The translations under genes were made by a program, and so were the position numbers. The notes under the pieces were generated by a model. The model saw nothing but the letters and a program-made list of their open reading frames with translations, ran no database searches and had not been told where the DNA came from. Source: Halarcobacter sp. (GTDB lineage Bacteria; Campylobacterota; Campylobacteria; Campylobacterales; Arcobacteraceae). From it: DNA of 64,000 nt. The stretch spans positions 1,120,001 through 1,184,000 of the forward strand of contig OY781089.1 in NCBI GenBank assembly GCA_963676565.1, in the 5' to 3' direction. Shown here one piece after another: positions 11,221-27,871 of this stretch. Positions within the stretch are counted from its first letter, which is position 1, and the number at the start of each line of letters is the position of its first letter.

Positions 11221-11250
11221 TTACCTATATTTTTATAGGAGGCTACAAAG

Positions 11251-11500: not shown

Positions 11501-11533
11501 AAAAAAATCAAAAATTATATTAAGGAAAAAATT

Positions 11534-12778
11534 ATGTTAAACGATAAAACAGTATTTGAAGAGAATGAATCAGAAATTAGAGCTTATTGTAGAGCAGTAC
11601 CAACTGTTTTTAAATCATCAAAAAATGCAATTATGATTGACGAAAATGATAAAGAATTTGTAGACTTTTTTGCAGGAGCTGGAGTTTTAAACTTTGGTCA
11701 CAATAATCCAAAAATGAAAGAAGCGGTAATAGAGTTTTTACAAAGGGATGGAGTAGTTCATTCCCTTGATATGTTTACAGATGTTAAAAGAGATTTTATT
11801 TCAACATTTGTTGAAACAGTTTTAAAGCCTAGAGGAATGGGTGATTATAAACTTCAATTTACAGGACCAACAGGAACAAATGCAGTTGAAGCAGCACTTA
11901 AACTTGCTAGAAAAGTAACTGGAAGAACAGAGATTGTAGCTTTCCATAGAGGTTTCCATGGTATGACTTTAGGTTCACTTGCTTGTACTGCAAATAATGC
12001 CTTTAGAAGCTCATCAGGAGTTCCTTTAAATAATGTTATTAGAGGAACATTTAATGACATGGAAGCTCTAGATAGAATGAGAGAACAAATGTTTGATGCA
12101 GGATCTGGGATGTTACCACCAGCTGGATTTATAGTAGAACCAGTACAAGCTGAAGGTGGTGTTAGGCCAGCAACAAAAGAGTGGCTTCAAGCAGTACAAA
12201 AACTTGCACGAGATACTGGAGCATTATTTATCCTTGATAGTATTCAATGTGGTAATGGTAGATGTGGAAGCTATTTCAGTTTTGATGATTTAGATGTTGA
12301 CCCAGATATTAATATTTGTGCAAAAGGTTTAGGTGGATTTGGTACACCAATTGGTATGTTAGTAAATAAACCAGAAATCGACAAAGCTTGGGGACCAGGA
12401 CAACATACTGGTACATTTAGAGGACAAGGTATCTCATTTGTAGCAGGTAAGGTTGCCTTAGAATATTTTAAAGATGAGGAGTTTAATAAAGAGACTATTA
12501 GAAAAGGTAAAGTGATTAGAACCTTACTTGATGAGATGAATGAAAAATATCCTCAAGTTACAGATATTAGACAAAAGGGGATGATGTTAGCAATAAACTT
12601 TGATAATGCGGCAACTGTTAAAGAGATTACTGGAAAATGTTACGAAAATGGTTTAATTATTGGAGCTTGCTCAACGGGTGAGATTATTAAATTTATTCCA
12701 CCTTTAACAATTGAAGATGAAGTTTTAGAAGAGGGACTAAAAAGATTTAAAGCTTCAGTTGAAGCTGTATTAGGTTAA
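11534..12778 (+). CDS. Diaminobutyrate aminotransferase, EctB-like class III PLP enzyme; probably catabolic (DoeD role)
   Basis: FEENESEIRAYCR, DFFAGAGVLNFGHN, GPTGTNAVEAALKLARK and PGQHTGTFRG motifs; first gene of the doeA/tea cluster. Confidence 0.88.
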   Translation: MLNDKTVFEENESEIRAYCRAVPTVFKSSKNAIMIDENDKEFVDFFAGAGVLNFGHNNPKMKEAVIEFLQRDGVVHSLDMFTDVKRDFISTFVETVLKPRGMGDYKLQFTGPTGTNAVEAALKLARKVTGRTEIVAFHRGFHGMTLGSLACTANNAFRSSSGVPLNNVIRGTFNDMEALDRMREQMFDAGSGMLPPAGFIVEPVQAEGGVRPATKEWLQAVQKLARDTGALFILDSIQCGNGRCGSYFSFDDLDVDPDINICAKGLGGFGTPIGMLVNKPEIDKAWGPGQHTGTFRGQGISFVAGKVALEYFKDEEFNKETIRKGKVIRTLLDEMNEKYPQVTDIRQKGMMLAINFDNAATVKEITGKCYENGLIIGACSTGEIIKFIPPLTIEDEVLEEGLKRFKASVEAVLG

Positions 12779-12918: not shown

Positions 12919-14319
12919 ATGGGATATAGCTCAACACATTTTAAATCAATAAATCCATACAATGAAGAGATTGTATGTGAAGTACCAATGCATACAAAAG
13001 AACAGGCAAGAGAAATTATAGAAAATGCTCAAGAAGCATATGTTGGTGAGTGGATTAATACAAGTTATGAACAAAGAGCAAAGCTTTTAAATGCAGTTGC
13101 AAAAGAGATGAAAGATAACCTTGATTATTACGCTCTTCCTATGACTGAAGAGATGGGTAAACCTATTAATGAAGCAAGAGGGGAAGTTAATAAAGCTGCA
13201 TGGGCAGCAGAACACTATGCAAGTTTTGGAGAAGAGTATTTAAAAACTGAATACTTAGAATCAGATGCAACTGAAAGTTATGTTCAGTATTTACCCCTTG
13301 GAGTAACACTTGGAGTGTTACCTTGGAATGCACCTTTTTGGTTAGCTTTTAGATACTTAGCTCCTGCACTTATGTCTGGAAATACTTGTATTATGAAACA
13401 TGACTCACATACTCCATTATGTGCACTTAGAATAGTCGAAGCCTTTACTAAAGCAGGGTTTCCTACAAATGTTGTTCAAAATCTAATGGTAGGACATTCA
13501 TTACTTGAAGATGTAATTAGACATGAAAATGTAATGGGAGTTTCACTTACAGGTTCATCAAAAGCAGGTGCTGCCGTTGGAGCTATTGCTGGAAGTGAAA
13601 TTAAACCAGTTGTTTTAGAACTTGGTGGTAGTGACCCAGCTATTATTTTAGCAGATACCCAAGATTTAGAAAAAGCAGCTGATGTGGTTGTTTTATCAAG
13701 ATATATAAACGCTGGGCAATCTTGTATTGCTGCAAAAAGAATTATCGTTGAAGAGCCAATTTATGAAAAATTTATAGAACTTTTAAAAGAAAGGTTTGAG
13801 AAATTAAAACTTGGTGATCCTAAAGATGAGTCAACAACTATTGGACCAATAGCTAGACGTGAGTTAGTTGAAGAGATGCATGAGCAAGTTGATAGATCAG
13901 TTGCAGCAGGAGCTAGATTAGTTCTTGGTGGTCAAAGATTAGATGATATGCAAGGGTTTTTCTTCCCTGTGACTATTTTAGCTGATGTAGAACCTGGTAT
14001 GGTTGTTTCTTGCCAAGAAACATTTGGACCAATAGCATCCGTTATAAAAGTAATAGATGAAGAGGAAGCTATAAAAATAGCAAATGCAACAGATTATGGT
14101 TTAGGTGGTTCTGTTTGGACAGGGGATGTCGAAAAAGGTAAAAAAATAGCTTCAAGAATTGTAACAGGACAAGTTTCAATTAATGGAATAGTTAAATCAG
14201 ACCCAAGGCTTCCAAGTGGTGGAGTAAAAAAATCTGGACTTGGAAAGGAGTTAGGACCACATGGAATTAGAATGTTTGTAAATACTCAACAAGTTTGGGT
14301 AGGTCCAGTTAAAAGTTAA
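12919..14319 (+). CDS. NAD(P)-dependent aldehyde dehydrogenase, SSADH-like; probable DoeC role
   Basis: PWNAP, LTGS, LELGGSDP, NAGQSCIA and ETFGP motifs. Confidence 0.9.
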   Translation: MGYSSTHFKSINPYNEEIVCEVPMHTKEQAREIIENAQEAYVGEWINTSYEQRAKLLNAVAKEMKDNLDYYALPMTEEMGKPINEARGEVNKAAWAAEHYASFGEEYLKTEYLESDATESYVQYLPLGVTLGVLPWNAPFWLAFRYLAPALMSGNTCIMKHDSHTPLCALRIVEAFTKAGFPTNVVQNLMVGHSLLEDVIRHENVMGVSLTGSSKAGAAVGAIAGSEIKPVVLELGGSDPAIILADTQDLEKAADVVVLSRYINAGQSCIAAKRIIVEEPIYEKFIELLKERFEKLKLGDPKDESTTIGPIARRELVEEMHEQVDRSVAAGARLVLGGQRLDDMQGFFFPVTILADVEPGMVVSCQETFGPIASVIKVIDEEEAIKIANATDYGLGGSVWTGDVEKGKKIASRIVTGQVSINGIVKSDPRLPSGGVKKSGLGKELGPHGIRMFVNTQQVWVGPVKS

Positions 14320-14334
14320 GTTTTGGAGAAGAAA

Positions 14335-15522
14335 ATGAATAAAACAAAACTTGCCTTTACTAAAAAGGAATATATTCAAAGGGTTAAAAGAGTTAAATCT
14401 TTAATGCAACAAAGGCGAATTGACGTCTTAGTTGCAACTGACCCAGGAAACATGAATTGGCTAACTGGTTATGATGGGTGGTCATTTTATGTTCATCAAG
14501 GGGTAATTATCTCATTAGATCATGAAGAACCTATTTGGTTTGGAAGACTTATGGATGTGAATGCAGCATTACTTAGATGTTACATGAGTAAAGAGAATAT
14601 GATTGGTTATCCTGAAATGTATGTACAAAATCTAGATGAGCATCCAATGACATGGATTGGAGAAAATATTTTCAGAAAAAATAAATGGGAAAAATGTGTT
14701 ATTGCAACTGAAAGGGACAATTACTACTATTCTGCAGAAGCTCATTTTAGATTAACTGCAACTTTACCAAATGCAACATTTGTAAATGCCAATAATCTAG
14801 TAAATTGGGTTAGAGGTAAAAAGTCAGCAAAAGAGATTGAGTATATGAAAATTGCTGGAAGAATTACTGAAAAGATTCATCAAAGAGTACTTGATATTGT
14901 AAGACCTGGTATTCCAAAATCCCATGTAGTTTCTCAAATTTATGAAACAGCAATTGCGGGAGTTGATGGTTATGGGGGAGATTATCCTTCAATCGTACCT
15001 CTACTTCCCTCAGGAAAAGAAGCATCAGCATCTCATATTACTTGGGATGATAGCCCTTTTAAAAGAAATGAAGCAACATTTTTTGAGATATCTGGGTGTT
15101 ATAAAAGATACCATGCTCCTATGTCAAGAACAATTTATATGGGAAAACCAAATCAAAAATTTCTTGATGCAGAAAAGGCATTGCAAGAAACAATAGAAGC
15201 AGGACTTGAAATGGCAAAGCCAGGAAATACAACTGCTGATATTGCAAATGCAGCCCAAAAAGTTATGAATAAATACGGTATTGATAGAAACAATGCAAGA
15301 TATGGATATCCAATTGGAGTTAGTTATCCACCCGATTGGGGTGAGCGAACTTGTAGTTTAAGAAGTACAGATTTAACAGTTCTTGAACCGGGTATGACCT
15401 TTCATTTTATGCCAGGGATTTGGCAAGAGGATTGGGGAGTTGAGATTACAGAAAGTATTCATATTACTAAAGATGGGGTAGAAACTTTTTGTAATTTTCC
15501 AAGACAATTATTTCTAAAGTGA
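14335..15522 (+). CDS. doeA: Ectoine hydrolase DoeA/EutD (M24 fold)
   Basis: NMNWLTGYDGWSFYVHQ, YVQ...HPM and GYPIGVSYPPDWGERT are characteristic of EutD/DoeA; GGAG RBS before ATG 14335. Confidence 0.9.
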   Translation: MNKTKLAFTKKEYIQRVKRVKSLMQQRRIDVLVATDPGNMNWLTGYDGWSFYVHQGVIISLDHEEPIWFGRLMDVNAALLRCYMSKENMIGYPEMYVQNLDEHPMTWIGENIFRKNKWEKCVIATERDNYYYSAEAHFRLTATLPNATFVNANNLVNWVRGKKSAKEIEYMKIAGRITEKIHQRVLDIVRPGIPKSHVVSQIYETAIAGVDGYGGDYPSIVPLLPSGKEASASHITWDDSPFKRNEATFFEISGCYKRYHAPMSRTIYMGKPNQKFLDAEKALQETIEAGLEMAKPGNTTADIANAAQKVMNKYGIDRNNARYGYPIGVSYPPDWGERTCSLRSTDLTVLEPGMTFHFMPGIWQEDWGVEITESIHITKDGVETFCNFPRQLFLK

Positions 15523-15613
15523 CACTAAATATAGGGGGTGTATCTATAAAAAAGCTTATATTTAAAACCAGACAGAGAAAAAGCGATAAAACAAACAAAG
15601 AAAGGAATTTGAT

Positions 15614-16621
15614 ATGAAATTATTTAAAGGATTGGTAATAGCAGGTTTAATTACTGCTACAAGTTTGAGTGCAGCAACATGGAAATATGCTTTTGGTGAA
15701 GGTACAAGTGACCCTCAAGGTATTTATGCAACTGCATTTAAGAGTTTTATAGAGGATAATTCAAGAAATAAAATAGAACTATATAAGGTTGGGTCTTTAG
15801 GTGAAGAAACTGACATGATGGAGCAAACAAGAGCTGGTTTACTTCATTTCTTAGGTCAATCAACAGGATATATGGGTGGAACTATTCCTGAGATGGATGT
15901 TTTTACAGTTCCTTATGTGATGCCTACAGATACAAAACAATTGGATTATTTCTTTAAAAACTCAAAAGTAATTAATGAGATGCTTCCAACAATTTTCCAT
16001 AAACATGGATTAGAATTATTATCTATTTTCCCTGAAGGAGAGATGGCTGTTACAACTTTTGAAGAGTTTCATTCACCTGCAGATTTAAAGGGTAAAAAGA
16101 TGAGAGTTATGCCAGGTTCTCCTATTTTGGTTGAAACATATAAAGCTTTTGGAGCATCTCCTCAACCTATGTCATGGGGTGATTTAGTTGGTGCACTTAA
16201 AACAGGAATGGTTGATGGACAAGAAAACCCAACAGTATGGATTGAAGCATATGGTTTAGATGATTTAACAAAAGTTTTAACATATACAGGACATGGACAC
16301 TTTAATGCATCAGTTAGTGCAAATAAAAAGTTTTATGACGGATTATCAAAAAGAGATAAAAAATTAGTTCAAGAAGCTGCTAAGTTTGCCCATAAAACAA
16401 TTTTACAAGAGGCTCAAAAACTTGATGCTTATGGATTAGGAAGAATTGTAAGAACAAATCCTAGTTATAAAATTGTAACTTTAACTGAAGATGAAAGAAA
16501 AGTATTTAAAGAAGAAGCAAAAGCTGTTCAAGAATCATTCGCTTCAAAAAGTGATTCAAATAAAAAAATTATGACTCAAATGATGAAAGATTTAGCCGAG
16601 GCTGAAGCAAATGCTAAATAA
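15614..16621 (+). CDS. teaA: TRAP substrate-binding protein DctP, TeaA/UehA-like (ectoine)
   Basis: Signal peptide; PEGEM, KMRVM and DGQENP motifs; lies next to doeA and teaBCD-like genes. Confidence 0.82.
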   Translation: MKLFKGLVIAGLITATSLSAATWKYAFGEGTSDPQGIYATAFKSFIEDNSRNKIELYKVGSLGEETDMMEQTRAGLLHFLGQSTGYMGGTIPEMDVFTVPYVMPTDTKQLDYFFKNSKVINEMLPTIFHKHGLELLSIFPEGEMAVTTFEEFHSPADLKGKKMRVMPGSPILVETYKAFGASPQPMSWGDLVGALKTGMVDGQENPTVWIEAYGLDDLTKVLTYTGHGHFNASVSANKKFYDGLSKRDKKLVQEAAKFAHKTILQEAQKLDAYGLGRIVRTNPSYKIVTLTEDERKVFKEEAKAVQESFASKSDSNKKIMTQMMKDLAEAEANAK

Positions 16622-16630
16622 TTTTTAATA

Positions 16631-16697
16631 TATAGTAATCCACTTTTAGTGGATTTACTATAGTAGATTACAAAGTGTTGTAACCTACTATAGTAAA
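16631..16697 (+). other. Overlapping alternative hairpins between teaA and teaB
   Basis: Hairpin A (16631-16662) and hairpin B (16654-16697) share TTTACTATA; B ends at the teaB RBS. Confidence 0.6.
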
Positions 16698-16707
16698 AGG
16701 AAGAATT

Positions 16708-17277
16708 ATGGACACTAGTACAAAGAACCCAATACTAAAAGCTTTAGATTTTGTAGACAAAATGCTAAGCAAATTTGAAGGTATTATGCTTGCTTTAGGT
16801 GTAATTGCAATGGCAATAATAACTATACTTTCAGTTATTACAAGATTTATTTTTAATGATGCCTTAACAATAACAGATGAACTAAATATGATTTTTATTG
16901 TAATAGTTACCTTTGCTGGTCTAAGTTACGCAGCTAGAAATGGAAGACATATTAGAATGTCTGCAATATATGATGCTCTTCCAACAAAAATTAGAAAAGT
17001 CTTTATGATATTTATCTCTTTAATCACTTCAATTTTTATGTTCATATTAGCAAAATATTCATATGGATATATAGTTGAGGTATATGAAAGTGGAAGAATA
17101 TTGCCAGCAATTGGAATACCAGTATTTTATGTATATTTATGGGTTCCTATTGGTTTTACTGTTACAGGGCTTCAATATTTTTTTACAGTTATAAAAAATA
17201 TTAGAGAAGATGATGTTTTTCTTTCAACAAAGGTAAGAGATGGATACAGCGATAGTAACAACGATATGGAAGTATAA
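16708..17277 (+). CDS. teaB: TRAP small permease DctQ, TeaB-like
   Basis: Four TM segments; GLSYAARNGRHIRMSAIYD motif. Confidence 0.85.
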   Translation: MDTSTKNPILKALDFVDKMLSKFEGIMLALGVIAMAIITILSVITRFIFNDALTITDELNMIFIVIVTFAGLSYAARNGRHIRMSAIYDALPTKIRKVFMIFISLITSIFMFILAKYSYGYIVEVYESGRILPAIGIPVFYVYLWVPIGFTVTGLQYFFTVIKNIREDDVFLSTKVRDGYSDSNNDMEV

Positions 17278-17286
17278 GGAAGAAAG

Positions 17287-19047
17287 ATGCAAAAGTTTAT
17301 AAAACAATTTTTAATAATTTCTACAATTTTAGTTGGATTTTCCATATCTGCTTTTTCAAAAGAGAATATAATTTTATACTTTGATGAGATTGCTATTGAG
17401 GATAAAGTGAATCTTTCTATTTATGGTTCAGCAGAATCAGAAGATTTTTCTTCCCATAAATGGCAAATTATAAATGTAAAAGTAAAAGGTAGTAAAAATA
17501 AAGAGCTTCTTTTTAGTACTGAGACTGATAAAAAAGGTTTTTGGGAAGTTGAGAATATAGATATCAAAGATTTTAGTGATGGAAAGCTTAATATTGAAGT
17601 TAAAATGATGACAGAAGATGGTGAAGTTTTGGCTTCTTTAGTAGATAAAAACACTATAAAAGATACAAGTTTTAAAATAACTGAATTTCTAAAAAATCAT
17701 TTATCAGCATCAATTTTTTCATTAATGGTGATTTTATTACTACTTGGTTTTCCTATGATGATTCCATTAATTGCAGGAACCTCATTGGGGGTTTTCTTAC
17801 TTTTTGATGGAGATTTTTCAAAAATGGAGTTTCTAATTCAGCAGATGATGGGAGGAATTAGACCAGCTGCATTAATTGCAGTTCCTATGTTTATTCTATC
17901 TGCTGATATTATGACTAGGGGGAAAAGTGCAGAAAAGCTCATTGATTTAGTAATGGCTTTTGTAAGACATATTAAGGGTGGACTTGCAGTTAGTACAGCA
18001 GGAGCTTGTGCTATGTTTGGTGCTGTTTCTGGTTCTACTCAGGCAACTGTTGTTGCAATTGGATCTCCTTTAAGACCAAGACTTAAAAAAGGTGGATATA
18101 AAGAATCATTTATTTTAGCTCTTATAGTAAATTCAAGTGATATCGCCTTTTTAATCCCTCCAAGTATTGGGATGATTATTTATGGAATTGTTGCTAAAAC
18201 ATCTATTCCTGAACTTTTTATTGCAGGGATTGGACCTGGATTATTAATCCTTTTTCTATTTTCAATTTATAGTATTATTTATGCATATAGACATAATATC
18301 CCAACTGAACCAAAAGCTACATGGAAAGAAAGGGGTAGTGCTTTAGTAAATGCCTTATGGCCTTTAGGTTTCCCTGCAATTATTGTTGGGGGTATTTTTG
18401 GAGGAATCTTCTCTCCAACTGAAGCTGCTGCTGTTAGTGTAGCATATGCAATTTTCTTAGAAGGTATTGTTTTTAAAACAATGAAATTAAAAGATTTGTA
18501 TGCAACTGCTAAATCAACTGGATTAGTAACAGCTGTTGTATTTATATTAGTTGGAGCTGGAGCTGGATTTGCATGGGTTTTATCATTTGCTCAAATTCCA
18601 CAACAAATTTTAAGTTCTATTGGTATTACTGAAATGGGACCTTATCAAGTTTTATTTGTAATCTCAATCGCTTTTTTTGTTGGGTGTATGTTTGTTGATC
18701 CAATTGTAGTTATATTAGTTTTAGTTCCTATTTTTGCACCAATTGTAAATTCAGTTGGATTAGATCCAGTTTTAGTGGGAACTATTATTACACTTCAAGT
18801 AGCAATTGGTTCTGCAACTCCACCTTTTGGTTGTGATATTTTTACAGCTATTGCTGTATTTAAAAGACCATATTTAGAAGTAATAAAAGGAACACCACCA
18901 TTTATTTTTATTCTTTTAAGTGTATCTGTTGCTTTAATTTTCTTTCCAGATATTGCACTATTTTTAAGGGATGTTGCCTTTAGAGAATTAAATGTAATCG
19001 ACTATTTCCAAAATCTATTTGGTTTTAGTGCTCAAGTAATAGAATAA
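17287..19047 (+). CDS. teaC: TRAP large permease DctM, TeaC-like, with an extra N-terminal exported domain of about 135 aa
   Basis: The DctM body (LIAVPMFIL, FGAVSGSTQATV, LIPPSIGMI, PTEAAA, TPPFG) starts near residue 140, preceded by a signal peptide and a soluble beta-rich domain. Confidence 0.85.
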   Translation: MQKFIKQFLIISTILVGFSISAFSKENIILYFDEIAIEDKVNLSIYGSAESEDFSSHKWQIINVKVKGSKNKELLFSTETDKKGFWEVENIDIKDFSDGKLNIEVKMMTEDGEVLASLVDKNTIKDTSFKITEFLKNHLSASIFSLMVILLLLGFPMMIPLIAGTSLGVFLLFDGDFSKMEFLIQQMMGGIRPAALIAVPMFILSADIMTRGKSAEKLIDLVMAFVRHIKGGLAVSTAGACAMFGAVSGSTQATVVAIGSPLRPRLKKGGYKESFILALIVNSSDIAFLIPPSIGMIIYGIVAKTSIPELFIAGIGPGLLILFLFSIYSIIYAYRHNIPTEPKATWKERGSALVNALWPLGFPAIIVGGIFGGIFSPTEAAAVSVAYAIFLEGIVFKTMKLKDLYATAKSTGLVTAVVFILVGAGAGFAWVLSFAQIPQQILSSIGITEMGPYQVLFVISIAFFVGCMFVDPIVVILVLVPIFAPIVNSVGLDPVLVGTIITLQVAIGSATPPFGCDIFTAIAVFKRPYLEVIKGTPPFIFILLSVSVALIFFPDIALFLRDVAFRELNVIDYFQNLFGFSAQVIE

Positions 19048-19066
19048 TTTTAAGTAAAAAGGAGAT

Positions 19067-19525
19067 GTGATGTTTAAAAAAATATTAGTACCAACTGATG
19101 GTTCAGAACAAGCAAATAAGGCTTTGGATTTAGCTTGTAAAATGGCCATGGAAAATGATCAAACTCAGATAAATATATTGTCAGTTTTTAGACATCATAG
19201 TTTTACAGAAGCTTCATTAGCAATGCTTCCAAGACAAGTAGATGATGAAGCTGCAAATTTAGATGAGGTTATGAGAACATATGCAAAGGAGTTAGTTGCC
19301 AAATCAAAAGAGCTTGCTATTGAGTATGGATTAGAAAAACATAGGGTAAGAGGTTTTATTAGAATTGGGCAAGTTGCAAAAGAGATTTTAGATTTTATAA
19401 AAGAGGAAGATGTTGATTTAATTATAATTGGGAAACAAGGAAGAGGAGATTTAAGTGGTTATCTTTTAGGTGGAGTTTCCCATAAAGTTACAGGTCTTGC
19501 AAAAATCCCAGTAATGGTTGTATGA
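19067..19525 (+). CDS. teaD: Universal stress protein, TeaD-like
   Basis: FKKILVPTDGS, VFRHHS and G..GRG...GYLLGGVSHKV motifs; directly after teaC. Confidence 0.85.
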   Translation: MMFKKILVPTDGSEQANKALDLACKMAMENDQTQINILSVFRHHSFTEASLAMLPRQVDDEAANLDEVMRTYAKELVAKSKELAIEYGLEKHRVRGFIRIGQVAKEILDFIKEEDVDLIIIGKQGRGDLSGYLLGGVSHKVTGLAKIPVMVV

Positions 19526-19680
19526 TGATTTTATTTGATATTAGAAAAATCAATAGTATCTATTGCTTTAATAGAGTCTATTCAAAGGTAGCTTACTCGT
19601 CCAGATTATAAAAGGATTAAAGTTTTTAATCCTGCAATATTTTATAAATAATTTAAATAAATTCTTAATCGGACAAAAAA

Positions 19681-20841
19681 ATGAAAAATAAAACAATGAA
19701 AGCTATGGTTTTAACAGGCCATGGAGATATAAATAAAATAAAGTACAAAGATGTAGCAATACCAAAACCAAAAAAAGGTGAGGTATTAGTTGAAGTTCAT
19801 GCCACTGCCAAAAATAATACTGATAGAAAAGCTAGAATTGGTGTTTATGGGGTGGATGATAAAAATAAAGATGAAATTACATCCTTTGATATGAGTGGGG
19901 ATAACACTTTTACCTTTCCTAAAATTCAAGGTGCAGATATAGTTGGAACAATTGTAGCAGTTGGTTCAGAAGTTTCAACTAGTAGAATTGGAAAAAAAGG
20001 TTTAATAGATTTTAATATCTATTTAGACCTTGAAAAAAATGATAATTTAAATCTAACTCCTGATTATATAGGACATGGTTGTGATGGAGGCTTTGCTGAA
20101 TATGTAGTAGTTCCCGATGAAAATTTTTATAATATGTCAAATCTTGATATAAGTGATGCCCAACTTGCAAGTTTAGGTATGTGTTCATATCAAACAGGAC
20201 TTCGAATGCTAAATGCTTCAAGGGTAAAAAAAGGAGATTTAGTATTAGTTTCTGGGGCAAGTGGTGGAGTTGGAACTGCTTTAATTCAAATGTGTAGAAT
20301 CTTAGGGGCAATTCCTTATGCCTTAAGTAGTAAAGAAAAAGAGGCGCAACTTCTAAAAATAGGAGCCGAAAAAGTAATTGATAGAGCAGATATAAATAGC
20401 TTAAAACAAAGAGTTTTAGAAGCAACAAATGGAAAAGCTATAGATGCAGTTATGGATATGGTTGGTGGAGAATACACAAATGTTTTCTTAGATTGTATGA
20501 TTACTGATATGAAAAATAAAAGTGACTATCCAAGACTTAGTATTGCAGGAGCTAGTGGAGATAATCTAACACAAATTATGTGGTCAAAGATATATCTATA
20601 TCAAATAGAGATTCATGGAGTTTCCCATGGAACTAGAAATGAAGTAAAACAATTAATGAAATGGATTAGAGAGGGGAAATTAAAACCTATGCTTCATGCC
20701 ACATTTAAGCTTTCTGAGCTTCATAAGTGTGAAGAGTATTTTGCAAATAGGTCAAATAATTATCTTGGAAAAGTAGTAGTAATTCCTGATTCAAAATGGG
20801 ATGAATATGGGAAAGAGTTTGCTCAAAAGGATTCTTTATGA
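19681..20841 (+). CDS. MDR-family NAD(P)-dependent oxidoreductase, apparently zinc-independent
   Basis: NNTD, IQGADIVG, DGGFAEY and SGASGGVG motifs; lacks the catalytic-Zn Cys and the GHE motif. Confidence 0.88.
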   Translation: MKNKTMKAMVLTGHGDINKIKYKDVAIPKPKKGEVLVEVHATAKNNTDRKARIGVYGVDDKNKDEITSFDMSGDNTFTFPKIQGADIVGTIVAVGSEVSTSRIGKKGLIDFNIYLDLEKNDNLNLTPDYIGHGCDGGFAEYVVVPDENFYNMSNLDISDAQLASLGMCSYQTGLRMLNASRVKKGDLVLVSGASGGVGTALIQMCRILGAIPYALSSKEKEAQLLKIGAEKVIDRADINSLKQRVLEATNGKAIDAVMDMVGGEYTNVFLDCMITDMKNKSDYPRLSIAGASGDNLTQIMWSKIYLYQIEIHGVSHGTRNEVKQLMKWIREGKLKPMLHATFKLSELHKCEEYFANRSNNYLGKVVVIPDSKWDEYGKEFAQKDSL

Positions 20842-21881
20842 GTTCAAAAGAGCATAAAATAGGTCTAATTGATACCCACGCTGGAGGTGATGTTAGTAGA
20901 ATAGTTTTTTCTGGAGTTAAAAAACTTCCAGGGAAAACTGTAAGAGAGCAAATGGAATACTTACAAAAAAAGGCAGATGGTTTAAGAAAAACATTACTTT
21001 TTGAGCCATATGGAATCCCTGAGATGTCAATAGATTTAGTTGTTCCAGCTTGCGAAAGCGAAGCAGTTGCAGGATATATTATTATGGAAGTGATGGGATA
21101 TCCTATCTATTCTGGGTCTAATACTTTATGTACAGCAACTGCGGTTATTGAAAAAGGATTAGTAGCTAAAAAAGAGGGAATAACAAATTTTAAACTTGAA
21201 TCTCCTGCAGGTTTAGTTGATATTGAAGCAAATATAGTAAATGGTGTTGTTGAATCTGTAACTTGTCAAGGATTACCAAGTTATATTCATTCTTATAAAC
21301 AGATAATTAATATACCAAATTTGGGAGAAGTTACTTATTCAATAGCCTATAGTGGTGGTTTTTATGTTTTAGTTGAAGCCTCGCAACTTGGTTTTAAATT
21401 AAATAAAAGTGAAGAGGAAGAGTTATCTAAAACTGCATATATGATAATTGAAGAAATTAGAAAAAAACAGGATTTTAAACACTATAGTTTAGGTGATGTG
21501 GGACCTATTCCTTTTTTACATTTTATGGGTGAAGTTACTAAAAAACAGGAAGGTTTATATAGCTCACCTTCAACTACTTATGTACACCCAGGGGTTATTT
21601 GTAGAAGTACAACAGGAACAGGAACTTCAGCTAGACTTGCATATTTATATTATGAAGGAAAGATAAAACAAGGGGATAGATTAGAGACTATTTCCTTAAG
21701 AGATACAAGATTTATTGGAGTTTTTGAAAGTGTTGAAAAACAAAAAAACTACAATGTTATTAACAACAAAATTTCAGGTAAAAGTTATATCATAGGTAAA
21801 CAAGATATTTATATTAATTGTGATGATCCAATGTTAAATCATCTTAATAGTTTGAATGAATTAACAGATCTACTTGAATAA
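20838..21881 (+). CDS. Proline racemase superfamily protein, Ser/Thr active-site type (putative dehydratase)
   Basis: IDTHAGG and LLFEPYG motifs; YSGSN in place of MCGH; CRSTTGTGTSAR in place of DRSPCGTG. Confidence 0.88.
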   Translation: MSSKEHKIGLIDTHAGGDVSRIVFSGVKKLPGKTVREQMEYLQKKADGLRKTLLFEPYGIPEMSIDLVVPACESEAVAGYIIMEVMGYPIYSGSNTLCTATAVIEKGLVAKKEGITNFKLESPAGLVDIEANIVNGVVESVTCQGLPSYIHSYKQIINIPNLGEVTYSIAYSGGFYVLVEASQLGFKLNKSEEEELSKTAYMIIEEIRKKQDFKHYSLGDVGPIPFLHFMGEVTKKQEGLYSSPSTTYVHPGVICRSTTGTGTSARLAYLYYEGKIKQGDRLETISLRDTRFIGVFESVEKQKNYNVINNKISGKSYIIGKQDIYINCDDPMLNHLNSLNELTDLLE

Positions 21882-21899
21882 GATAAAAAGGAGAATTAT

Positions 21900-23060
21900 A
21901 TGTTAAAAAAATTTGAAGAGGTTGTAAACTTTGCAATAGATTTTAGACACAATTTACATAAACACCCAGAATTAAAATGGGAAGAAACTAATACAGCAAA
22001 ATCTATTAGAGATATTTTAGATGAGTATGATATTCCTTATAAAACCTATGCAAATACAGGAACTTGTGGACTTTTAGCACAAGATAAAAAAGGCCCTCAT
22101 ATTGCAATTAGAGGTGATATTGATGCCCTTGCATTAGTAGAAAAAACAGATGTACCATATAAGTCAACAAAAGAGCAATGTATGCATGCTTGTGGGCATG
22201 ATGGTCACACAGCAACACTAATGACGGCTGCCATTTGGTTAAAACAAAATGAACATCTATTAGAAAACCCAGTAACACTTTTATTTCAACCAGCAGAAGA
22301 GGGTGGTCATGGAGCTAAGAAAATGATAGAAGAGGGTTGTTTAGATGGTGTTGATATGATTTTTGGTTGGCATAATTGGCCTGCTATTAAATTTGGTCAA
22401 GCTGTATGTCCCGATGGTACTGTAATGGCTGGAAATGGAACTTTTCATATAAATATAAAAGGAAAGGGTGGACACTCTTCCCAACCTGAATTATGTCATG
22501 ACCCAGTTTTAGCAGCAAGTGCTATGACATTAAATCTCCAACAAATAATAAGTAGACAAGTCTCTCCACAAGATAGTGCAGTTGTTTCAGTAACTTCAAT
22601 TGATGGGAAAAGTGATTTAACTACAATCCCTGATTTTGTAAAACTTGAAGGAAGTATTAGAGTGCCAACTGATGAGTTAAAGAGTTTTGTTTTTAATAAA
22701 ATAGATGAGATTGTAAAAGCAACTGCAAAAACTTATAACGTAGAGGTTGATGTTGAATTAAGAGATAGGTATGGAGCAACAATAAACCACAAAACCCAAG
22801 CGGAAATGGTTAGAGAAGAGTTAAAAAATCAATTGGGTGAAAATTGGGAAAGTGATATTCCAACACCTATTATGGCAAGTGAAGATTTTAGCTATTATTT
22901 AAACACAATACCTGGAGCTTTTGCACTTATTGGAAGTGATGATGGGGTTGAAAAACATCAAAAAGCTTGTCATAATGTTCATTATGATTTTAATGATAAA
23001 TTAATATCTCCAGTTAGTAAAACTTTAATGAGATTAGCTGGTTACAAAGGAGAGTTTTAG
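21900..23060 (+). CDS. M20D amidohydrolase; putative N-acetyl-diaminobutyrate deacetylase role
   Basis: RGDIDAL, MHACGHDGH, FQPAEEG, GKGGH and SEDFS motifs. Confidence 0.9.
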   Translation: MLKKFEEVVNFAIDFRHNLHKHPELKWEETNTAKSIRDILDEYDIPYKTYANTGTCGLLAQDKKGPHIAIRGDIDALALVEKTDVPYKSTKEQCMHACGHDGHTATLMTAAIWLKQNEHLLENPVTLLFQPAEEGGHGAKKMIEEGCLDGVDMIFGWHNWPAIKFGQAVCPDGTVMAGNGTFHINIKGKGGHSSQPELCHDPVLAASAMTLNLQQIISRQVSPQDSAVVSVTSIDGKSDLTTIPDFVKLEGSIRVPTDELKSFVFNKIDEIVKATAKTYNVEVDVELRDRYGATINHKTQAEMVREELKNQLGENWESDIPTPIMASEDFSYYLNTIPGAFALIGSDDGVEKHQKACHNVHYDFNDKLISPVSKTLMRLAGYKGEF

Positions 23061-23069
23061 GAGATACAA

Positions 23070-23540
23070 TTAGGCAATTGGCCTATTGTATCTCATAAAA
23101 TATATAGATGGAATTGCAAGTCCAAAGCCAATTCCCCCTAAAATAGTAATTGTTTTTAAACCATTTTCAACAAAAATAGTAATAAGTTCAGGGGTAACTC
23201 CATGGGCACTCATATTTATAAGATTTATAACAGCATTAAAAGCATATGTTCCGGGAATCAAAGGTATAATTGAAGCAATCGTATAAACAGGTCTTGGAAT
23301 AATATATTTTCTTGACCAATATAGAGCAACTAAACCAACTATTGTAGAAGCTAAAAATGTTGCAAGTTCAATACTAAAATTTATATCCATTAAAATAGTT
23401 CTTGAAGTATATGCAATTGCTCCACCAAATCCACAATATATAAGTGTATGTTTAGGAACATTAAAAACCATACCAAAGCCAATAGCTGGAATGGCAGCAA
23501 AAATTGCATTTATAATATAATTAATTAATTCAGTACCCAT
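23070..23540 (-). CDS. ThrE_2/YjjB-like exporter subunit
   Basis: GFGMVFNVP and IIPLIPG motifs; paired with the YjjP-like gene. Confidence 0.88.
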   Translation of the reverse strand: MGTELINYIINAIFAAIPAIGFGMVFNVPKHTLIYCGFGGAIAYTSRTILMDINFSIELATFLASTIVGLVALYWSRKYIIPRPVYTIASIIPLIPGTYAFNAVINLINMSAHGVTPELITIFVENGLKTITILGGIGFGLAIPSIYFMRYNRPIA

Positions 23541-23541
23541 A

Positions 23542-24333
23542 TTACCAACCTTTTAAGTCTAAAATTACAAAGGCAAAAACAATCCCAATTGCAGTTGCTA
23601 CTGTTAATAAAACAGCTTGCATCCAACGACCCCAACCCATGGCTAGATAACCTTTTACAGCATCTAAAACAGAATTGATAAAAGGGAAACCAGGAGCAAG
23701 TAAAATTACACTTGATGATAAAGCAATATCTATCTTATCACTTAATTCATATATATGGGCAAGTCCAGAGATTATTGTTGCCACAAAAGCAGTTGCAGCA
23801 AAGGTTATAATCATCACAAACTTTCTTTTTGCTAATTCTTGTCTAGTAAACATAGCTACACTTGATGCAACAAAAGTGACAAAAAATGAGATTAAATCTG
23901 CTCCGTTTAAGTATGCAAAAGAGGCACATGATAAACCAATCATAAAAACTACAAGCCATCTATTATAATAGTTTGCTTGAATCTCTTTCATTGTTTTTAA
24001 TACAAAACTTACATCTTTTTTTTCTTTTTCTGTTTGATGACACATCCTTTGAACATCACAAACAATAGACATGTTTATTGGTTTATGGTATGCCCTTCTT
24101 GTTGTTGTAACAGAGTGTGTTTGATTGTTTGTTAGTGTTGTTAAAACAATAGCCGAAGGGATTAGAGAAAGTTCAACGGAATCAACACCTAAAGCCTTTC
24201 CTAATCTTTGAGCAGTTTGTTCTATAAGTCTACTTTCTGCACCATATTCAAGCATTAATACAGCAGCTTTAATTACAGCCCTTGTAATCTTTGTTTGTTC
24301 TTCGTAAGTTAGTTGTGTTTGTATCTCTTCCAT
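23542..24333 (-). CDS. ThrE/YjjP-like exporter subunit (threonine/succinate exporter family)
   Basis: LEYGAESRLIE, INMSIV and LAPGFPFINSVLD motifs. Confidence 0.88.
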   Translation of the reverse strand: MEEIQTQLTYEEQTKITRAVIKAAVLMLEYGAESRLIEQTAQRLGKALGVDSVELSLIPSAIVLTTLTNNQTHSVTTTRRAYHKPINMSIVCDVQRMCHQTEKEKKDVSFVLKTMKEIQANYYNRWLVVFMIGLSCASFAYLNGADLISFFVTFVASSVAMFTRQELAKRKFVMIITFAATAFVATIISGLAHIYELSDKIDIALSSSVILLAPGFPFINSVLDAVKGYLAMGWGRWMQAVLLTVATAIGIVFAFVILDLKGW

Positions 24334-25085
24334 TATTTTATAAAATCTTTTATTTTTAGTATATTTCCACCATCATCAGCAATATAAAGATTACCTTTTT
24401 TATCAAAGGTTATTCCTTCTTGATCATAATAGTTTGTTAGTTTGTATTCTTTTTTTGTCTTTTGTTTTTTTAAATCATATTCAATTAAAAGTGAATCTTT
24501 ATCACTTACCATAAAAAGATTATTTTTATAAAAAGTTAATCCTGCAATATCTTTATATCCATGGTTTATAATCTCTTTAATCTTTTGTTTTTTCTTTTTC
24601 AAATCGTAATCAATAACCACAATTACAGAAGAGTCTTCTTTTGGATAAAGCTTATTAGATTGGTTTGATAAATATATTTTATCTTTTAATATGGCAATAC
24701 CTTCAATACCATCATTACCTTTTTTTAAAACCTTAATTCCATCAAATTCTCTTTTTATTGAGATCTCTTTTTTCTTTTTAAAATTTTTTTTTGATAGGAC
24801 TAAAATATTATCTTCACCTTCAATTGCTACTAATAAAATATCTTTTTTATCATCAACTGCAACACCTTCAAAATCATATTTCCCTATCTCTTTTTCCCTT
24901 AGAATTTTACCTTCTAAATCTAATTCATAAATTGAACCCTCATCTGCAACAACAAAAAGTGTGTTTGATTTTTTTGAGTAAGTGATACCAGAAGCCTCTT
25001 GAATTTTCGAAATTATAATCTCTTTTGCTAACATATTTTGAATTAAACCATTAAAAATTAAAACTATAAGAAGAAATCTTTTCAT
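24333..25085 (-). CDS. Secreted SdiA-regulated (YjiK-like) beta-propeller protein
   Basis: Signal peptide; repeated EASGIT/DFEGV/GIEGI/QEGIT blades. Confidence 0.8.
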   Translation of the reverse strand: MKRFLLIVLIFNGLIQNMLAKEIIISKIQEASGITYSKKSNTLFVVADEGSIYELDLEGKILREKEIGKYDFEGVAVDDKKDILLVAIEGEDNILVLSKKNFKKKKEISIKREFDGIKVLKKGNDGIEGIAILKDKIYLSNQSNKLYPKEDSSVIVVIDYDLKKKKQKIKEIINHGYKDIAGLTFYKNNLFMVSDKDSLLIEYDLKKQKTKKEYKLTNYYDQEGITFDKKGNLYIADDGGNILKIKDFIK

Positions 25086-27871
25086 CCTTCTTTTACCTCT
25101 ATTGGAAGAGAAAGGGTGAAAAGTGCGCCTTTATAATAGATTTCATCAACTAAAAAAGTACAATTAGATACTAAGATTCTACCCTTTAAATGTTTAGTAA
25201 TGATTTCATTTGACATATAAAGTCCTATTCCAGTACCTTGTGATTTATGTTTAGTTGTAAAGTATGGTTCTAGAATTCTATTTATAATATTTTTAGGAAT
25301 TCCCCCCGCATTATCTTTTATCTCAATGATTAGTGAATCTTTTTCTTTATAAGTATTTATACAAATTACAGCTTTTGATATTTTTTTTGATTCAATTGCA
25401 TCAATTGCATTATTTAAAATATTTAGTAAAATTTGTACAAGTTCACTTTCTAAAGTTTTTATCTTTATACTTCTCATATCTTTTATAACTTCAATATTAT
25501 ATTTCTTTAGTCTTGAATCAACTAAATATAAAGATTTGTCAATGCAATCTTTTATATCAAAATATTGAACAAGTTTATTTGGATAAAAAAAATTTCTAAA
25601 ATCTTCTATTGTTTTTGAAAGATATTGAGATTGTTTATTTATGGAGTTTATACTTTCAAGTAAAAACTTTTCATCCACTTTTTTATTTATCTCCAATTGC
25701 AATTGCATTCCTGTCGAGGCAGTTGAAATCACTGAAAGTGGTTGTCTCCATTGGTGAGCAATATTCTCTAACATCTCTCCCATTGCCGCCATTTTAGATT
25801 GCTGTGCAAGAAGTGTGTCTTGTTCCCTTTTTTCTAATTCAAGTTTTTTTATTTTTGTTAAATCAAGTATAGTCCCAATGATAAATAAAGGTTTACCTTC
25901 ATTTGAAAATTTTGTTATTTTTGAGGTTAATTGAATATATTTAATAGTCTCATCTCTTAGTAAGATTTTAAATTCAAAGGAATTTTTTCTTTTTGTTCTA
26001 AAAGATTTTAAAAACTCTTTTTTTACTCTTTTTTTATCATCAGAATGGATAAAAGAGAAAAAAGTTAACAATGTTGGCTTAATTTCACCCACAAAAAGTC
26101 CAAAAATTTTATAGTGTTCATTACTCCATTTTAATTCTTTCTTTTTTATACTGTAACCAAAACTTCCTAGTTTTGCAATTGTTTGTGCTTCATCAAGTAG
26201 ATAATTGGCTCTTCTTAATTCTTTAGTTTTTTCTTCAATTCTTTCTTCTAATTGTTCATTTAAAATCTTTAGCTCTTTAGTTCTTTCATCCACAAGAATT
26301 TTTAAGTTTTTGCTTTTTCGTAAGTTTTGTTGATTAAAATATATTAATGGAATAAAAAATAAACTTGTTAGACCAAGTAAAACCCACAGGGTTTTATAAT
26401 CAAAGTTTTTCTCAAATTGAACATTTTCCCATCTTTTTATTATAGAGTTTACTTTCTCTTCATTTAATGAAATTATTGCTTTATTTAGTATTGATTGTAA
26501 AATTTTATAATCATCTCTAATCATAATACTCATATCATAATTTAGACCAGTATTACCTGTGATTTTTAAGGAGTCATAATTAAGTTTTCTAATGTTGTAA
26601 GCTAATAAAGGTTTAATATCAATAAAAGCATAGGCTTTTTTTTCATTTACAGCTCTTAATCCCTCATTGATATTTTTAACTAATAAAAAATCTAAATTTG
26701 GGTATTTCTCCCTTAAGATTTTGTGTGCAGTGAAGTTTTCTCCCACAGCAATTCTTTTATTAGAAAGATAGTTCATATTCTCTATAAAGTTTTCATCTTT
26801 AAGGGTAACTATAGACAAAGGAAAAGATGCATAAGATTTTGAAAATAGGGCATATTTTTTCCTATCTTTTGTTTCTCCGACACTAAATATTAAGTCTTGT
26901 TCTTTATTTTTTATTGCAAAGAGTTGTTTAGTAAAGTCATTATTAACAAAAAACTCATATTTTAAACCAAGTTTTTTAGCAATAAGTTCCCAAATTTCAG
27001 TTGAAATTCCCTCTGGCTTATTAACAGAAACAAAGGAAAAAGGTTCCCAAGATTTTGAAAGGGAAATTTTAAGGGTTTTTGATTTTATAAAATCTTTTTC
27101 CTCTTGGGTTAATTGAGTTAAGTTCTTGATATCCTCATAAATTCTTTGCTCGTTATGTATAATCCATTTACTCTCAACAGAAGCTAAATCTTCAGGTTTT
27201 AATTTTTCAAAACTTTCATTAAATATTTTTATAAGATTTTCATCTTTAGAAATGGCACTTATTTTAAAAGAATTAGATAAAAGTTTTATTGAACGTATTA
27301 AATGAAAATAGCCATTTTGCAAGGCATAATATTCAATTGCAATTTTATCATCATAAATTAAATCTATTTTTCTTGAAGTAAAATCTTTAAAAGCATCGGC
27401 ATAGTTCTTGTAAATAATAATTTCAGAATTTATAAAATTGTTTTTTATAATCTTTTCATAATCACTTCCTATAATTCCAACTATATAAGGAGCGTCTTTA
27501 CTAAATCCTTTGTCATTCTCTTTATGTATAAATAGGGAAGTATTAAGTTCATAGTAGGTTTTTGAACTTTTCATCCAATCTTCATAAGGATTTGTACCTA
27601 AAAAGAAATCAACTTTCTTTTCTTTTGCAAGATTTATTGAATTATCCCACGTAATTCCATTAATAAACTTTATACTATAATGATTTTCTTCTGCCCAAAG
27701 TCTCCAAAGATCTACAAAAAGACCCTCTGCTTTTCCATTTTGCTCATAGGAAAAGGGTGCATAATCTGGGTCATAAGAAACCTTAAATTGTTTTTGATTA
27801 GCATTTGATGGAATCAAAAGAATAAAAAAGAATAAAATAAGTATTTTTAGGAATATTTTTTTTGTGAACAT
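25082..27871 (-). CDS. Sensor histidine kinase with two periplasmic solute-binding domains and PAS
   Basis: YAPFS and WEPFS SBP domains, TM segment, PAS, NIAHQWRQPL H-box and GTGIGLY. Confidence 0.92.
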   Translation of the reverse strand: MFTKKIFLKILILFFFILLIPSNANQKQFKVSYDPDYAPFSYEQNGKAEGLFVDLWRLWAEENHYSIKFINGITWDNSINLAKEKKVDFFLGTNPYEDWMKSSKTYYELNTSLFIHKENDKGFSKDAPYIVGIIGSDYEKIIKNNFINSEIIIYKNYADAFKDFTSRKIDLIYDDKIAIEYYALQNGYFHLIRSIKLLSNSFKISAISKDENLIKIFNESFEKLKPEDLASVESKWIIHNEQRIYEDIKNLTQLTQEEKDFIKSKTLKISLSKSWEPFSFVSVNKPEGISTEIWELIAKKLGLKYEFFVNNDFTKQLFAIKNKEQDLIFSVGETKDRKKYALFSKSYASFPLSIVTLKDENFIENMNYLSNKRIAVGENFTAHKILREKYPNLDFLLVKNINEGLRAVNEKKAYAFIDIKPLLAYNIRKLNYDSLKITGNTGLNYDMSIMIRDDYKILQSILNKAIISLNEEKVNSIIKRWENVQFEKNFDYKTLWVLLGLTSLFFIPLIYFNQQNLRKSKNLKILVDERTKELKILNEQLEERIEEKTKELRRANYLLDEAQTIAKLGSFGYSIKKKELKWSNEHYKIFGLFVGEIKPTLLTFFSFIHSDDKKRVKKEFLKSFRTKRKNSFEFKILLRDETIKYIQLTSKITKFSNEGKPLFIIGTILDLTKIKKLELEKREQDTLLAQQSKMAAMGEMLENIAHQWRQPLSVISTASTGMQLQLEINKKVDEKFLLESINSINKQSQYLSKTIEDFRNFFYPNKLVQYFDIKDCIDKSLYLVDSRLKKYNIEVIKDMRSIKIKTLESELVQILLNILNNAIDAIESKKISKAVICINTYKEKDSLIIEIKDNAGGIPKNIINRILEPYFTTKHKSQGTGIGLYMSNEIITKHLKGRILVSNCTFLVDEIYYKGALFTLSLPIEVKEG

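Follow-up and report, generated by a model that had tools for sequence, protein, structure and literature searches.

An overlapping gene pair in a Halarcobacter ectoine operon encodes a putative hydroxyectoine dehydratase and reductase

Background

How the stress protectant hydroxyectoine loses its 5-hydroxyl group is a recognised gap in knowledge, and a 64,000-nucleotide stretch of a Halarcobacter sp. genome (contig OY781089.1, positions 1,120,001 to 1,184,000 of the forward strand; hereafter the window) raises the question of whether two overlapping genes within an ectoine operon could fill it. The first encodes a medium-chain dehydrogenase/reductase (MDR) of 386 residues with ADH_N and ADH_zinc_N domains and the second a 347-residue member of the proline racemase superfamily (PRS), and together they offer a concrete two-protein hypothesis that builds on the known chemistry of the trans-3-hydroxy-L-proline dehydratases (t3HypD). 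The activities of EutA, EutB and EutC have been described as unknown or uncertain (PMC8739950) and variant routes are expected by reviews, because many clusters are without eut genes (PMC5924519).

In the bacterial t3HypD of PDB entry 4K7G (B9K4G4), Ser90 is positioned by Asn93 and Thr256 is non-catalytic (Zhao et al. 2014, PMC4113996). According to the same source the prolyl nitrogen is bound by an Asp, water is lost by syn elimination, and all characterised PRS enzymes use cyclic imino acids.

In the present work we use profile annotation, residue comparison, phylogeny and genome surveys to ask what the pair does. We see an even chance that the PRS and MDR proteins, at present the best candidates for returning 5-hydroxyectoine to ectoine, are a hydroxyectoine dehydratase and reductase yielding ectoine, and that they form an accessory module of ectoine metabolism. 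The wider proposition, of an unrecognised and widespread route from 5-hydroxyectoine to ectoine by way of a cofactor-independent dehydratase of PRS fold and a Zn-free MDR, we advance tentatively, as a little short of evenly balanced. A preliminary description of the locus had proposed such a conversion, in place of EutB and EutC; the idea is partly supported here, in that its chemistry and context hold up.

The gene pair and its operon

The MDR and PRS genes have the tetranucleotide ATGA at 20838-20841 in common, which holds both the TGA stop codon of the former and the ATG start codon of the latter. The preliminary description reported this overlap correctly, but the order in its title has to be reversed, since the MDR gene comes first and the PRS gene second. 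Open reading frame (ORF) and profile annotation gives the order doeD-doeC-doeA-TRAP-usp-MDR-PRS-doeB2, all on one strand (Table 1; TRAP, tripartite ATP-independent periplasmic transporter). The operon brings together the hydrolase, N-acetyl-2,4-diaminobutyrate (N-acetyl-DABA) deacetylase, DABA transaminase and semialdehyde dehydrogenase of a doe/eut-type cluster, which upholds the ectoine-catabolic setting claimed earlier, and doeB2 starts 18 nt past the PRS stop codon, so that an essential catabolic gene lies directly downstream of the pair.

The DoeA protein matches PDB 6TWK, 'Ectoine hydrolase DoeA', with E 3.8e-163. For the semialdehyde dehydrogenase the best matches are succinate-semialdehyde dehydrogenase models, every one of them under its equivalog cut-off. 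The TRAP binding protein matches PDB entries 3GYY, 2VPN/2VPO and 3FXB with E about 1e-86, which we take to be the ectoine/hydroxyectoine-binding proteins TeaA and UehA.

Profile searches of the whole genome, one contig of 3.34 Mb, gave no match whatever to the EutC model and so no protein matching this model of the ornithine cyclodeaminase (OCD) family either. For EutB nothing was over the cut-off; the best match is a 406-residue ORF (268.7 bits against 413), which we read, judging by its length, as a threonine dehydratase. EctD was not found in this genome (47.8 bits against 336.5), and an ectoine synthase, EctC, is encoded outside the window (G000:C1:2398486-2398875). From this gene content the organism probably both makes and degrades ectoine and would meet hydroxyectoine only from outside.

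The proline racemase superfamily protein

The PRS protein matches PF05544 (Pro_racemase) over its full length, scoring 277.8 bits where 27 would suffice, with residues 11-332 aligned to positions 2-320 of the 325 in the profile, and it has 17 relatives in the PDB, the best with E 8.3e-54. No equivalog cut-off is reached: the best NCBIfam match, T3LHypDht, scores 235.4 bits against 550 (266.1 bits for the Halomonas orthologue), proline racemase 206 against 556 and 4-hydroxyproline epimerase 184 against 376.

In the alignment to 4K7G the two catalytic positions are occupied by Ser, in MGYPIYSGSN, and by Thr, in VICRSTTGTG, so that the dyad noted previously (Ser of YSGSN, Thr of CRSTTGTG) is confirmed and is of the dehydratase type, S-G-S-N plus Thr, with an Asn to position the Ser. 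The protein differs from t3HypD four residues before the Thr, where it has Cys for Asp (VICRSTTGTG against KIDRSPTGTG in 4K7G) and RS-T-T for RS-P-T; the motif D-R-S-P-T/C with its nitrogen-coordinating Asp is absent. These features are stable among 121 homologues of 62-98% identity, with MGYPIYSGSN kept in 120/121, VICRSTTGTG in 118/121 and Cys at the Asp position in all 120 of the 121 in which the motif was found.

Beyond this clade the nearest full-length relatives in a search of 1.84 billion representatives are only 41-47% identical. A FastTree phylogeny of 84 sequences splits in two with SH-like (Shimodaira-Hasegawa-like) support of 100, into 49 classical sequences with D-R-x-C/T and a superclade of 35, including the window protein, with GYPx[FY]S and C-R-x-T/S. 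Among the 80 of 110 full-length representatives that were scanned no superclade member reaches any curated cut-off, the best score being 333.7 bits against 550 (P0141). Database names are all generic, for example 'proline racemase family protein', the ESM Atlas gives generic 'proline racemase' clusters only, and a cluster look-up of ten superclade representatives returned a single name, from Aquisalimonas lutea. The window protein is thus a member of a deep, uncharacterised superclade without the prolyl-nitrogen-binding Asp.

Another Asp-less member of the superclade, with the motif MGYPLISGTN, is encoded on a Sinorhizobium americanum plasmid (L172 159-11092), clustered with genes for a glycine-betaine/proline ABC transporter, an 815-residue flavin adenine dinucleotide (FAD) oxidoreductase, a short-chain dehydrogenase/reductase (SDR), an aldehyde dehydrogenase (ALDH) and a GlxA-type regulator. 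This cluster hints that the superclade handles N-substituted osmolytes.

The reductase and its relatives

The MDR protein belongs to its superfamily by its matches to PF08240 (53.1 bits), PF00107 (57.7 bits) and PF13602 (41 bits), and its best subfamily match, quinone_pig3, is under the cut-off of that model. Zinc-dependent alcohol dehydrogenases carry the motifs C-H-S/T-D and GHE, and the zinc-type outgroup in our MDR tree shows CGVCHSD; the window protein reads NNTD and GAD instead, shows just one Cys around the structural-zinc loop and possesses the nucleotide motif GASGGVG. With the zinc ligands replaced and GASGGVG in place it is of the Zn-free, quinone oxidoreductase-like (QOR-like) type, and the earlier observation that the Zn ligands are missing was accurate. 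The closest solved relative is PDB 4J6F, 'putative alcohol dehydrogenase' (E 3.7e-82), and no other PDB match, whether to quinone oxidoreductases, enoyl reductases, 2-haloacrylate reductase or the like, is stronger than 1e-21.

On plasmids, tblastn detected homologues in 196 records, of which 99 were from Rhizobium and 74 from Sinorhizobium, and the contexts of six of these were inspected together with one Mesorhizobium record from the PRS plasmid search. In Paracoccus yeei an MDR of 52% identity ends the operon ehuABCD-eutA-eutB-cyclodeaminase-doeA-doeB-ssd-atf. On pSymB of S. meliloti (41.6% identity over 97% of the query) and pRL12 of R. johnstonii, MDRs that are 40-42% identical across 95% or more of the query come after (asnC-)ssd-atf, and this unit is divergent from enuR-ehuABCD-eutABC-doeA(-doeB). 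The window protein is therefore homologous to the 'adh'/COG604 MDR that follows ssd-atf in ectoine clusters. That COG604 oxidoreductase is reported to be ectoine-induced in S. meliloti and is listed among genes with yet undefined roles (PMC5924519), and it is named as an ectoine-induced member of the EutR regulon in several Rhizobiales (Suvorova and Rodionov, PMC5320631). The context of a Nitratireductor homologue was uninformative.

In a small IQ-TREE phylogeny with SH-aLRT support (approximate likelihood ratio test), the MDR of the Paracoccus eut operon is sister to all PRS-paired halophile MDRs (support 100), and the rhizobial, Nitratireductor and Tsukamurella proteins and two MDRs paired with enolase-superfamily genes form other groups. 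Taken together, these contexts have shown the MDR family to be tied to ectoine clusters in independent lineages, three besides that of the window.

The two enolase-paired proteins, a separate subclade 29-36% identical to the window MDR, come from hydroxyproline-type clusters that hold GntR, a dihydrodipicolinate synthase-like (DHDPS-like) protein, ALDH and an FAD oxidase. On a Leisingera plasmid (L091 10001-12216) the MDR gene (36%) overlaps one of the mandelate-racemase/enolase superfamily, and on the Mesorhizobium plasmid (L173 6682-10023) the order is MDR-enolase-PRS, in which the MDR is a 29%-identical 'alcohol dehydrogenase family protein' and the PRS protein has the classical D-R-C-P-C pattern. 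Enolase-type hydroxyproline dehydratases may thus have a partner reductase of MDR type that has gone undescribed, and with a related MDR subclade beside enolase-superfamily genes the combination of a dehydratase with this kind of MDR recurs.

Conservation of the pair

A genome scan with the PRS protein found 404 relatives, and the best 80 of the 404 were examined as loci. A same-strand MDR homologue lies upstream of the PRS gene in 78/80; two loci (L019, L050) have no MDR at a coverage of at least 50%, and in L041 some 2 kb separate the two genes. Among 80 metagenome loci the MDR is upstream of PRS in 70, and nine of the other ten are on contigs that end less than 650 nt upstream of PRS; the tenth (L155) has room upstream, yet no MDR match. 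The pairing is not chance, and the analysis has shown a dehydratase-type PRS that is translationally coupled to a Zn-free reductase and a pair that is inherited as a unit.

A more distant overlapping pair is present on a Tsukamurella tyrosinosolvens plasmid (L086 10920-14995), where an MDR of 41% identity and a superclade PRS protein of 47% are followed by a 625-residue 'SDR family oxidoreductase', with no ectoine genes within 12 kb. A further superclade PRS protein, 46% identical (G525), is without an MDR partner and in an uninformative context.

In the family of the window organism, Arcobacteraceae, the pair keeps close company with doeA. We searched 184 genomes of this family and found PRS in 12 of them, from 3 genera, and DoeA-like proteins in 24, from 5 genera; in 12/12 the PRS gene is within 6.4 kb of the DoeA-like gene on the same contig, and it occurs in 0/160 genomes without DoeA. 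The profile search found EutC in none of the 184. In the window and its like the pair stands between usp and doeB2, and in L179 the order is doeD-doeC-doeA-TRAP-usp-doeB2 with 33 nt from usp to doeB2 and no cassette. Minimal versions read doeD-doeC-doeA-doeB2 (L176, L178, L181) or doeB2-doeD-doeC-doeA (L177), L180 reads doeD-doeC-doeA-TRAP-usp up to the contig end, and two loci of another genus (L174, L175) have TRAP-usp-MDR-PRS-doeB2-doeD-doeC-doeA. From this series of presence and absence the pair acts like a cassette that the ectoine operon may have or lack, and its linkage to doe genes survives rearrangement, being kept in two gene orders.

Distribution among genomes

In all, some 150 of about 160 loci have no ectoine gene near the pair, and in gammaproteobacteria it is a stand-alone unit for which no constant neighbour partner was found in the neighbourhoods inspected. 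Among 201 Halomonadaceae genomes PRS occurs in 109, DoeA (over its cut-off) in 168 and a EutC-like protein (at E up to 1e-95) in 107. DoeA is present in 106/109 genomes with PRS and 62/92 without, an odds ratio of 17 whose significance is overstated, as shared ancestry was ignored. The 168 genomes with DoeA divide into 56 with both PRS and EutC, 50 with PRS only, 50 with EutC only and 12 with neither, which corresponds to an odds ratio of 0.27 for PRS against EutC, again with shared ancestry ignored. In one of the 12 (G062) the PRS sequence is in two pieces with in-frame stops (G062:C1:3272965-3273947), an apparent pseudogene.

A further check covered 50 of the 80 PRS-positive genomes. DoeA was over its cut-off in 30, full-length at 480-593 bits in 8, broken in 2 and absent from 10; EctD was over its cut-off in 30 and near it in 3 more, and a EutC-like gene was within 14 kb of DoeA in 9. 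The ten genomes without DoeA, 4 Marinobacter together with Alloalcanivorax, Marinospirillum, Halovibrio, V. utahensis, KBTZ08 and one metagenome-assembled genome, all have ectoine synthase EctC (10/10). In a sample of 401 Pseudomonadota genomes searched with PRS at E up to 1e-45, no small genome gave a match and neither did SAR11. PRS was found too in Marinobacter, Alcanivorax and Ectothiorhodospiraceae, and the pair is present in Halomonas/Vreelandella production strains such as H. salifodinae IM328 (L024).

Proposed reaction

We propose that the PRS protein would expel the syn 5-hydroxyl group of 5-hydroxyectoine to give 2-methyl-1,6-dihydropyrimidine-4-carboxylate, and that the Zn-free MDR, of the ene-reductase/QOR branch, would use NAD(P)H to reduce this alpha,beta-unsaturated cyclic enamine/imine to ectoine. 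Compounds of this sort, unsaturated carboxylates and cyclic enamines, are reduced by this branch of MDRs. In the window's genome the ectoine could then pass to DoeA, DoeB2, DoeD and DoeC of the same operon, and in halophilic producers with the pair alone it would feed the ectoine pool. By our own Cahn-Ingold-Prelog mapping, the (4S,5S) isomer of 5-hydroxyectoine presumably agrees in relative configuration at the alpha and beta carbons with (2S,3S)-trans-3-hydroxy-L-proline, so a syn elimination of the t3HypD type would fit without an epimerase or an inversion of the EutA kind. We speculate that Cys in place of Asp, with the aromatic MGYPIY, might suit a ring nitrogen that belongs to a delocalised amidinium and not to a secondary amine. 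What the substrate and product are, and which step comes first, we infer from the genes and their company. The place of the pair in the operon has been shown to be the slot that eutABC occupies in the uehABC-usp-eutABCDE cluster of R. pomeroyi (PMC5924519).

Several observations weigh against this proposal. Genes of the doe type are near PRS only in loci of the Arcobacteraceae type (the window, L001-L004, L092, L174 and L175), 76/80 genome loci and 79/80 metagenome loci having none within 10 kb, and the gammaproteobacterial neighbours are variable, with only the Vreelandella synteny genes for MMSDH, CorA and ArfB recurrent. The statistics of co-occurrence are confounded by shared ancestry, and ten of the 50 PRS-positive genomes lack DoeA, 6 of these also lacking EctD. 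It is not obvious that the loss of an acidic nitrogen ligand is needed for an amidinium substrate. R. pomeroyi is reported to use hydroxyectoine with EutABC, and its operon, as set out in PMC5924519, lists no such MDR. Lastly, EutD/EutE reportedly act on hydroxyectoine itself, opening and deacetylating it (PMC8739950), so that the hydroxyl group may instead leave from an acyclic intermediate, a poor fit for the PRS fold.

The claim that the pair replaces EutB/EutC holds for some lineages only. It agrees with the absence of EutC from the window's genome and the 184 family genomes, and it fails as a general rule because 56 Halomonadaceae genomes (56/106 of those with both PRS and DoeA) have the pair and EutC side by side, and because Paracoccus and the rhizobia hold the MDR together with eutABC.

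Alternative explanations

We think it unlikely, though well worth keeping in mind, that the pair is a halophile 'dehydratase plus ene/imine reductase' module for some other beta-hydroxylated cyclic or N-substituted amino acid, recruited secondarily to the Arcobacteraceae operon; candidates would be proline betaine or N-methylproline in hydroxylated form, a hydroxypipecolate, or an ectoine by-product of oxidation or damage, handled for salvage or repair. Such a module would account for the stand-alone two-gene unit of the gammaproteobacteria with its varying contexts, for the 6/50 genomes with neither DoeA nor EctD, for the Tsukamurella pair with no ectoine genes nearby and for the S. americanum protein in its betaine-type cluster (L172), and the whole superclade, without the nitrogen-binding Asp and with the aromatic MGYPx[FY], could be read in the same way. 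It fits less well with the Arcobacteraceae, where the pair is strictly linked to doeA in either of two gene orders, with the association with DoeA in Halomonadaceae, with the presence of EctC in 10/10 of the DoeA-less genomes and with the closest unpaired MDR, which sits inside a complete ehu-eut-doe operon.

That the pair instead serves a route for 3-hydroxyproline that employs a novel kind of reductase, its place in the operon reflecting a shared 'compatible solute and amino acid' island, seems improbable. T3LHypDht is indeed the best NCBIfam match, the Ser/Asn/Thr set is identical to that of t3HypD 4K7G, and related MDRs stand beside enolase-superfamily genes in the Leisingera and Mesorhizobium hydroxyproline-type clusters; however, that match reaches 235 bits of the 550 needed, the protein is in a separate deep superclade (support 100), all 120 homologues with the motif have Cys for the Asp that binds the prolyl nitrogen, and the hydroxyproline-cluster MDRs are of another subclade. 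No hydroxyproline genes (D-hydroxyproline oxidase, DHDPS-type deaminase) are beside the pair in about 160 loci, and in the window's family PRS occurs only with DoeA, always within 6.4 kb. Very improbable, in our view, is a different order or substrate, in which the MDR would oxidise the 5-hydroxyl to give 5-oxo-ectoine for isomerisation by PRS, or the pair would act on the hydroxy-alpha-acetyl-DABA (hydroxy-alpha-ADABA) or hydroxy-DABA arising from DoeA and DoeB2. The MDR gene does precede PRS and, in rhizobia, follows ssd-atf, whose enzymes act on DABA; the Zn-free MDRs of this branch act as C=C/quinone reductases and are not known as alcohol dehydrogenases, and two-base epimerisation is not expected of a Ser/Thr dyad. 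EutD/EutE are reported to give hydroxy-alpha-ADABA and possibly hydroxy-DABA, and DABA accumulates in hydroxyectoine-fed R. pomeroyi (PMC8739950), but the characterised PRS enzymes, all of them acting on cyclic imino acids (PMC4113996), speak for a ring substrate.

Should the conversion of hydroxyectoine to ectoine prove true, the route would be widespread, catabolic where it is joined to doe operons and, in producers, a back-conversion or salvage reaction and a hidden drain on hydroxyectoine pools. The pair could then limit hydroxyectoine yields in production strains and would be an obvious deletion target. It would also provide a function for the ectoine-induced rhizobial 'adh' (the 4J6F family) and for a first member of the deep PRS superclade that lacks the prolyl-nitrogen Asp.

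Other features of the region

Table 1. Features of the ectoine operon, in window coordinates
Feature	Position	Strand	Evidence
doeD-like diaminobutyrate-2-oxoglutarate transaminase	11534..12778	+	NF006733 550 bits (cut-off 438); Aminotran_3
doeC/ssd-like semialdehyde dehydrogenase	12919..14319	+	Aldedh 464.6 bits; assigned at family level only
doeA ectoine hydrolase	14323..15522	+	TIGR02993 587.2 bits, slightly below cut-off 613
TRAP transporter P, Q, M subunits, TeaABC/UehABC type	15614..19047	+	DctP, DctQ, DctM
Universal stress protein, position as usp/teaD of ectoine TRAP clusters	19067..19525	+	Usp 97.5 bits
Spacer upstream of cassette, 155 nt	19526..19680	.	Part conserved among relatives; hairpin at ~19614-19632
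Zn-free MDR (COG0604/QOR-like) oxidoreductase, proposed NAD(P)H-dependent reductase	19681..20841	+	Domains, motifs, PDB 4J6F
ATGA stop/start overlap of MDR and PRS	20838..20841	+	Sequence read
PRS protein, Ser/Thr dyad, proposed cofactor-free 5-hydroxyectoine dehydratase	20838..21881	+	PF05544, 4K7G alignment, tree
doeB2, M20-family N(2)-acetyl-L-2,4-diaminobutanoate deacetylase	21900..23060	+	NF038260 620.6 bits (cut-off 550)

In the spacer between usp and the MDR gene a stretch around 19545-19610 is conserved in five Arcobacter/Halarcobacter loci, and the hairpin reads GGATTAA-AGTTT-TTAATCC; the conserved stretch or the hairpin may be an operator or attenuator of the cassette. An Rfam scan of 10500-24500, spacer included, gave zero matches with E up to 0.1. 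A consensus scan found 62 promoter-like sites against 58.8 expected and 7 terminator-like sites against 5.7, numbers not above those of shuffled sequences, and four RNA runs contributed 0, 0, 0 and 2 reads over 11000-23400, too few to bear on expression.

The large TRAP permease (17287-19047) has 586 residues, and its DctM match starts at residue 146, which indicates an N-terminal extension of about 145 residues; the Halarcobacter-type locus L002 matches it over its full length and L001 and L003 over only about 426 residues. Downstream and convergent, the minus strand of 23070-27871 encodes a two-gene ThrE-type exporter, an SdiA-regulated/phytase-like beta-propeller protein and a 929-residue histidine kinase that carries a PAS and two SBP_bac_3 domains.

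Comparison with known systems

In the searched collection a full-text literature search found no paper that joins ectoine or hydroxyectoine with 'proline racemase', nor the term 'DoeB2'. A phylogenomic survey of ectoine catabolism from 2026 set the presence of EutD, EutE and EutB as its condition for entry, and the words Arcobacter, Campylobacter and racemase are absent from its available text, though its supplements might list such clusters. The available portions of papers on H. salifodinae with a doeA deletion (PMC11142988) and on H. hydrothermalis (PMC6815383) do not say whether hydroxyectoine is turned into ectoine.

The system closest in its logic is t3HypD B9K4G4/4K7G with pyrroline-2-carboxylate reductase, in which an NAD(P)H reductase takes over from a dehydratase that needs no cofactor, and the two dehydratases share the PF05544 fold, the Asn-held Ser of SGSN and the non-catalytic Thr. 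They differ in superclade, in Cys for Asp and RS-T-T for RS-P-T and in the T3LHypDht score already given; the partner is a Zn-free MDR here and a reductase of the OCD or MLD2 family there, and the genes around the pair are those of ectoine and not of hydroxyproline.

With EutA/EutB/EutC of R. pomeroyi and S. meliloti the pair would have in common the proposed net reaction, and it shares the operon slot after transporter and usp and the optional presence. The dihydropyrimidine carboxylate that we propose is also the intermediate proposed for EutB (PMC5924519). The folds are unrelated, EutB being a threonine-dehydratase-like enzyme dependent on pyridoxal phosphate (PLP) and EutC OCD-like, and neither gene of the pair is a member of the EutB/EutC families (TIGR02991/TIGR02992), so that the analogy is functional only; the pair would need no equivalent of the racemase EutA, and the two sets co-occur in 56/201 Halomonadaceae. 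The 'adh' of the asnC-ssd-atf region of S. meliloti and 4J6F are of the same Zn-free MDR family and, like the window protein, belong with an ectoine catabolic cluster; they are of clade B, with ssd-atf and eutABC and no PRS, and the window protein is of clade A.

As an ectoine catabolic operon the window cluster shares DoeA, DoeC/Ssd, DoeD/Atf, a TRAP transporter of TeaABC/UehABC type and Usp with those already known. It differs from them in the M20-type DoeB2, in place of DoeB/EutE, in having neither eutABC nor a regulator of the enuR or asnC type, and in its host, a member of the Campylobacterota. What is new here is the PRS superclade subfamily with its altered nitrogen ligand, the family of the reductase, the ectoine context and the host phylum.

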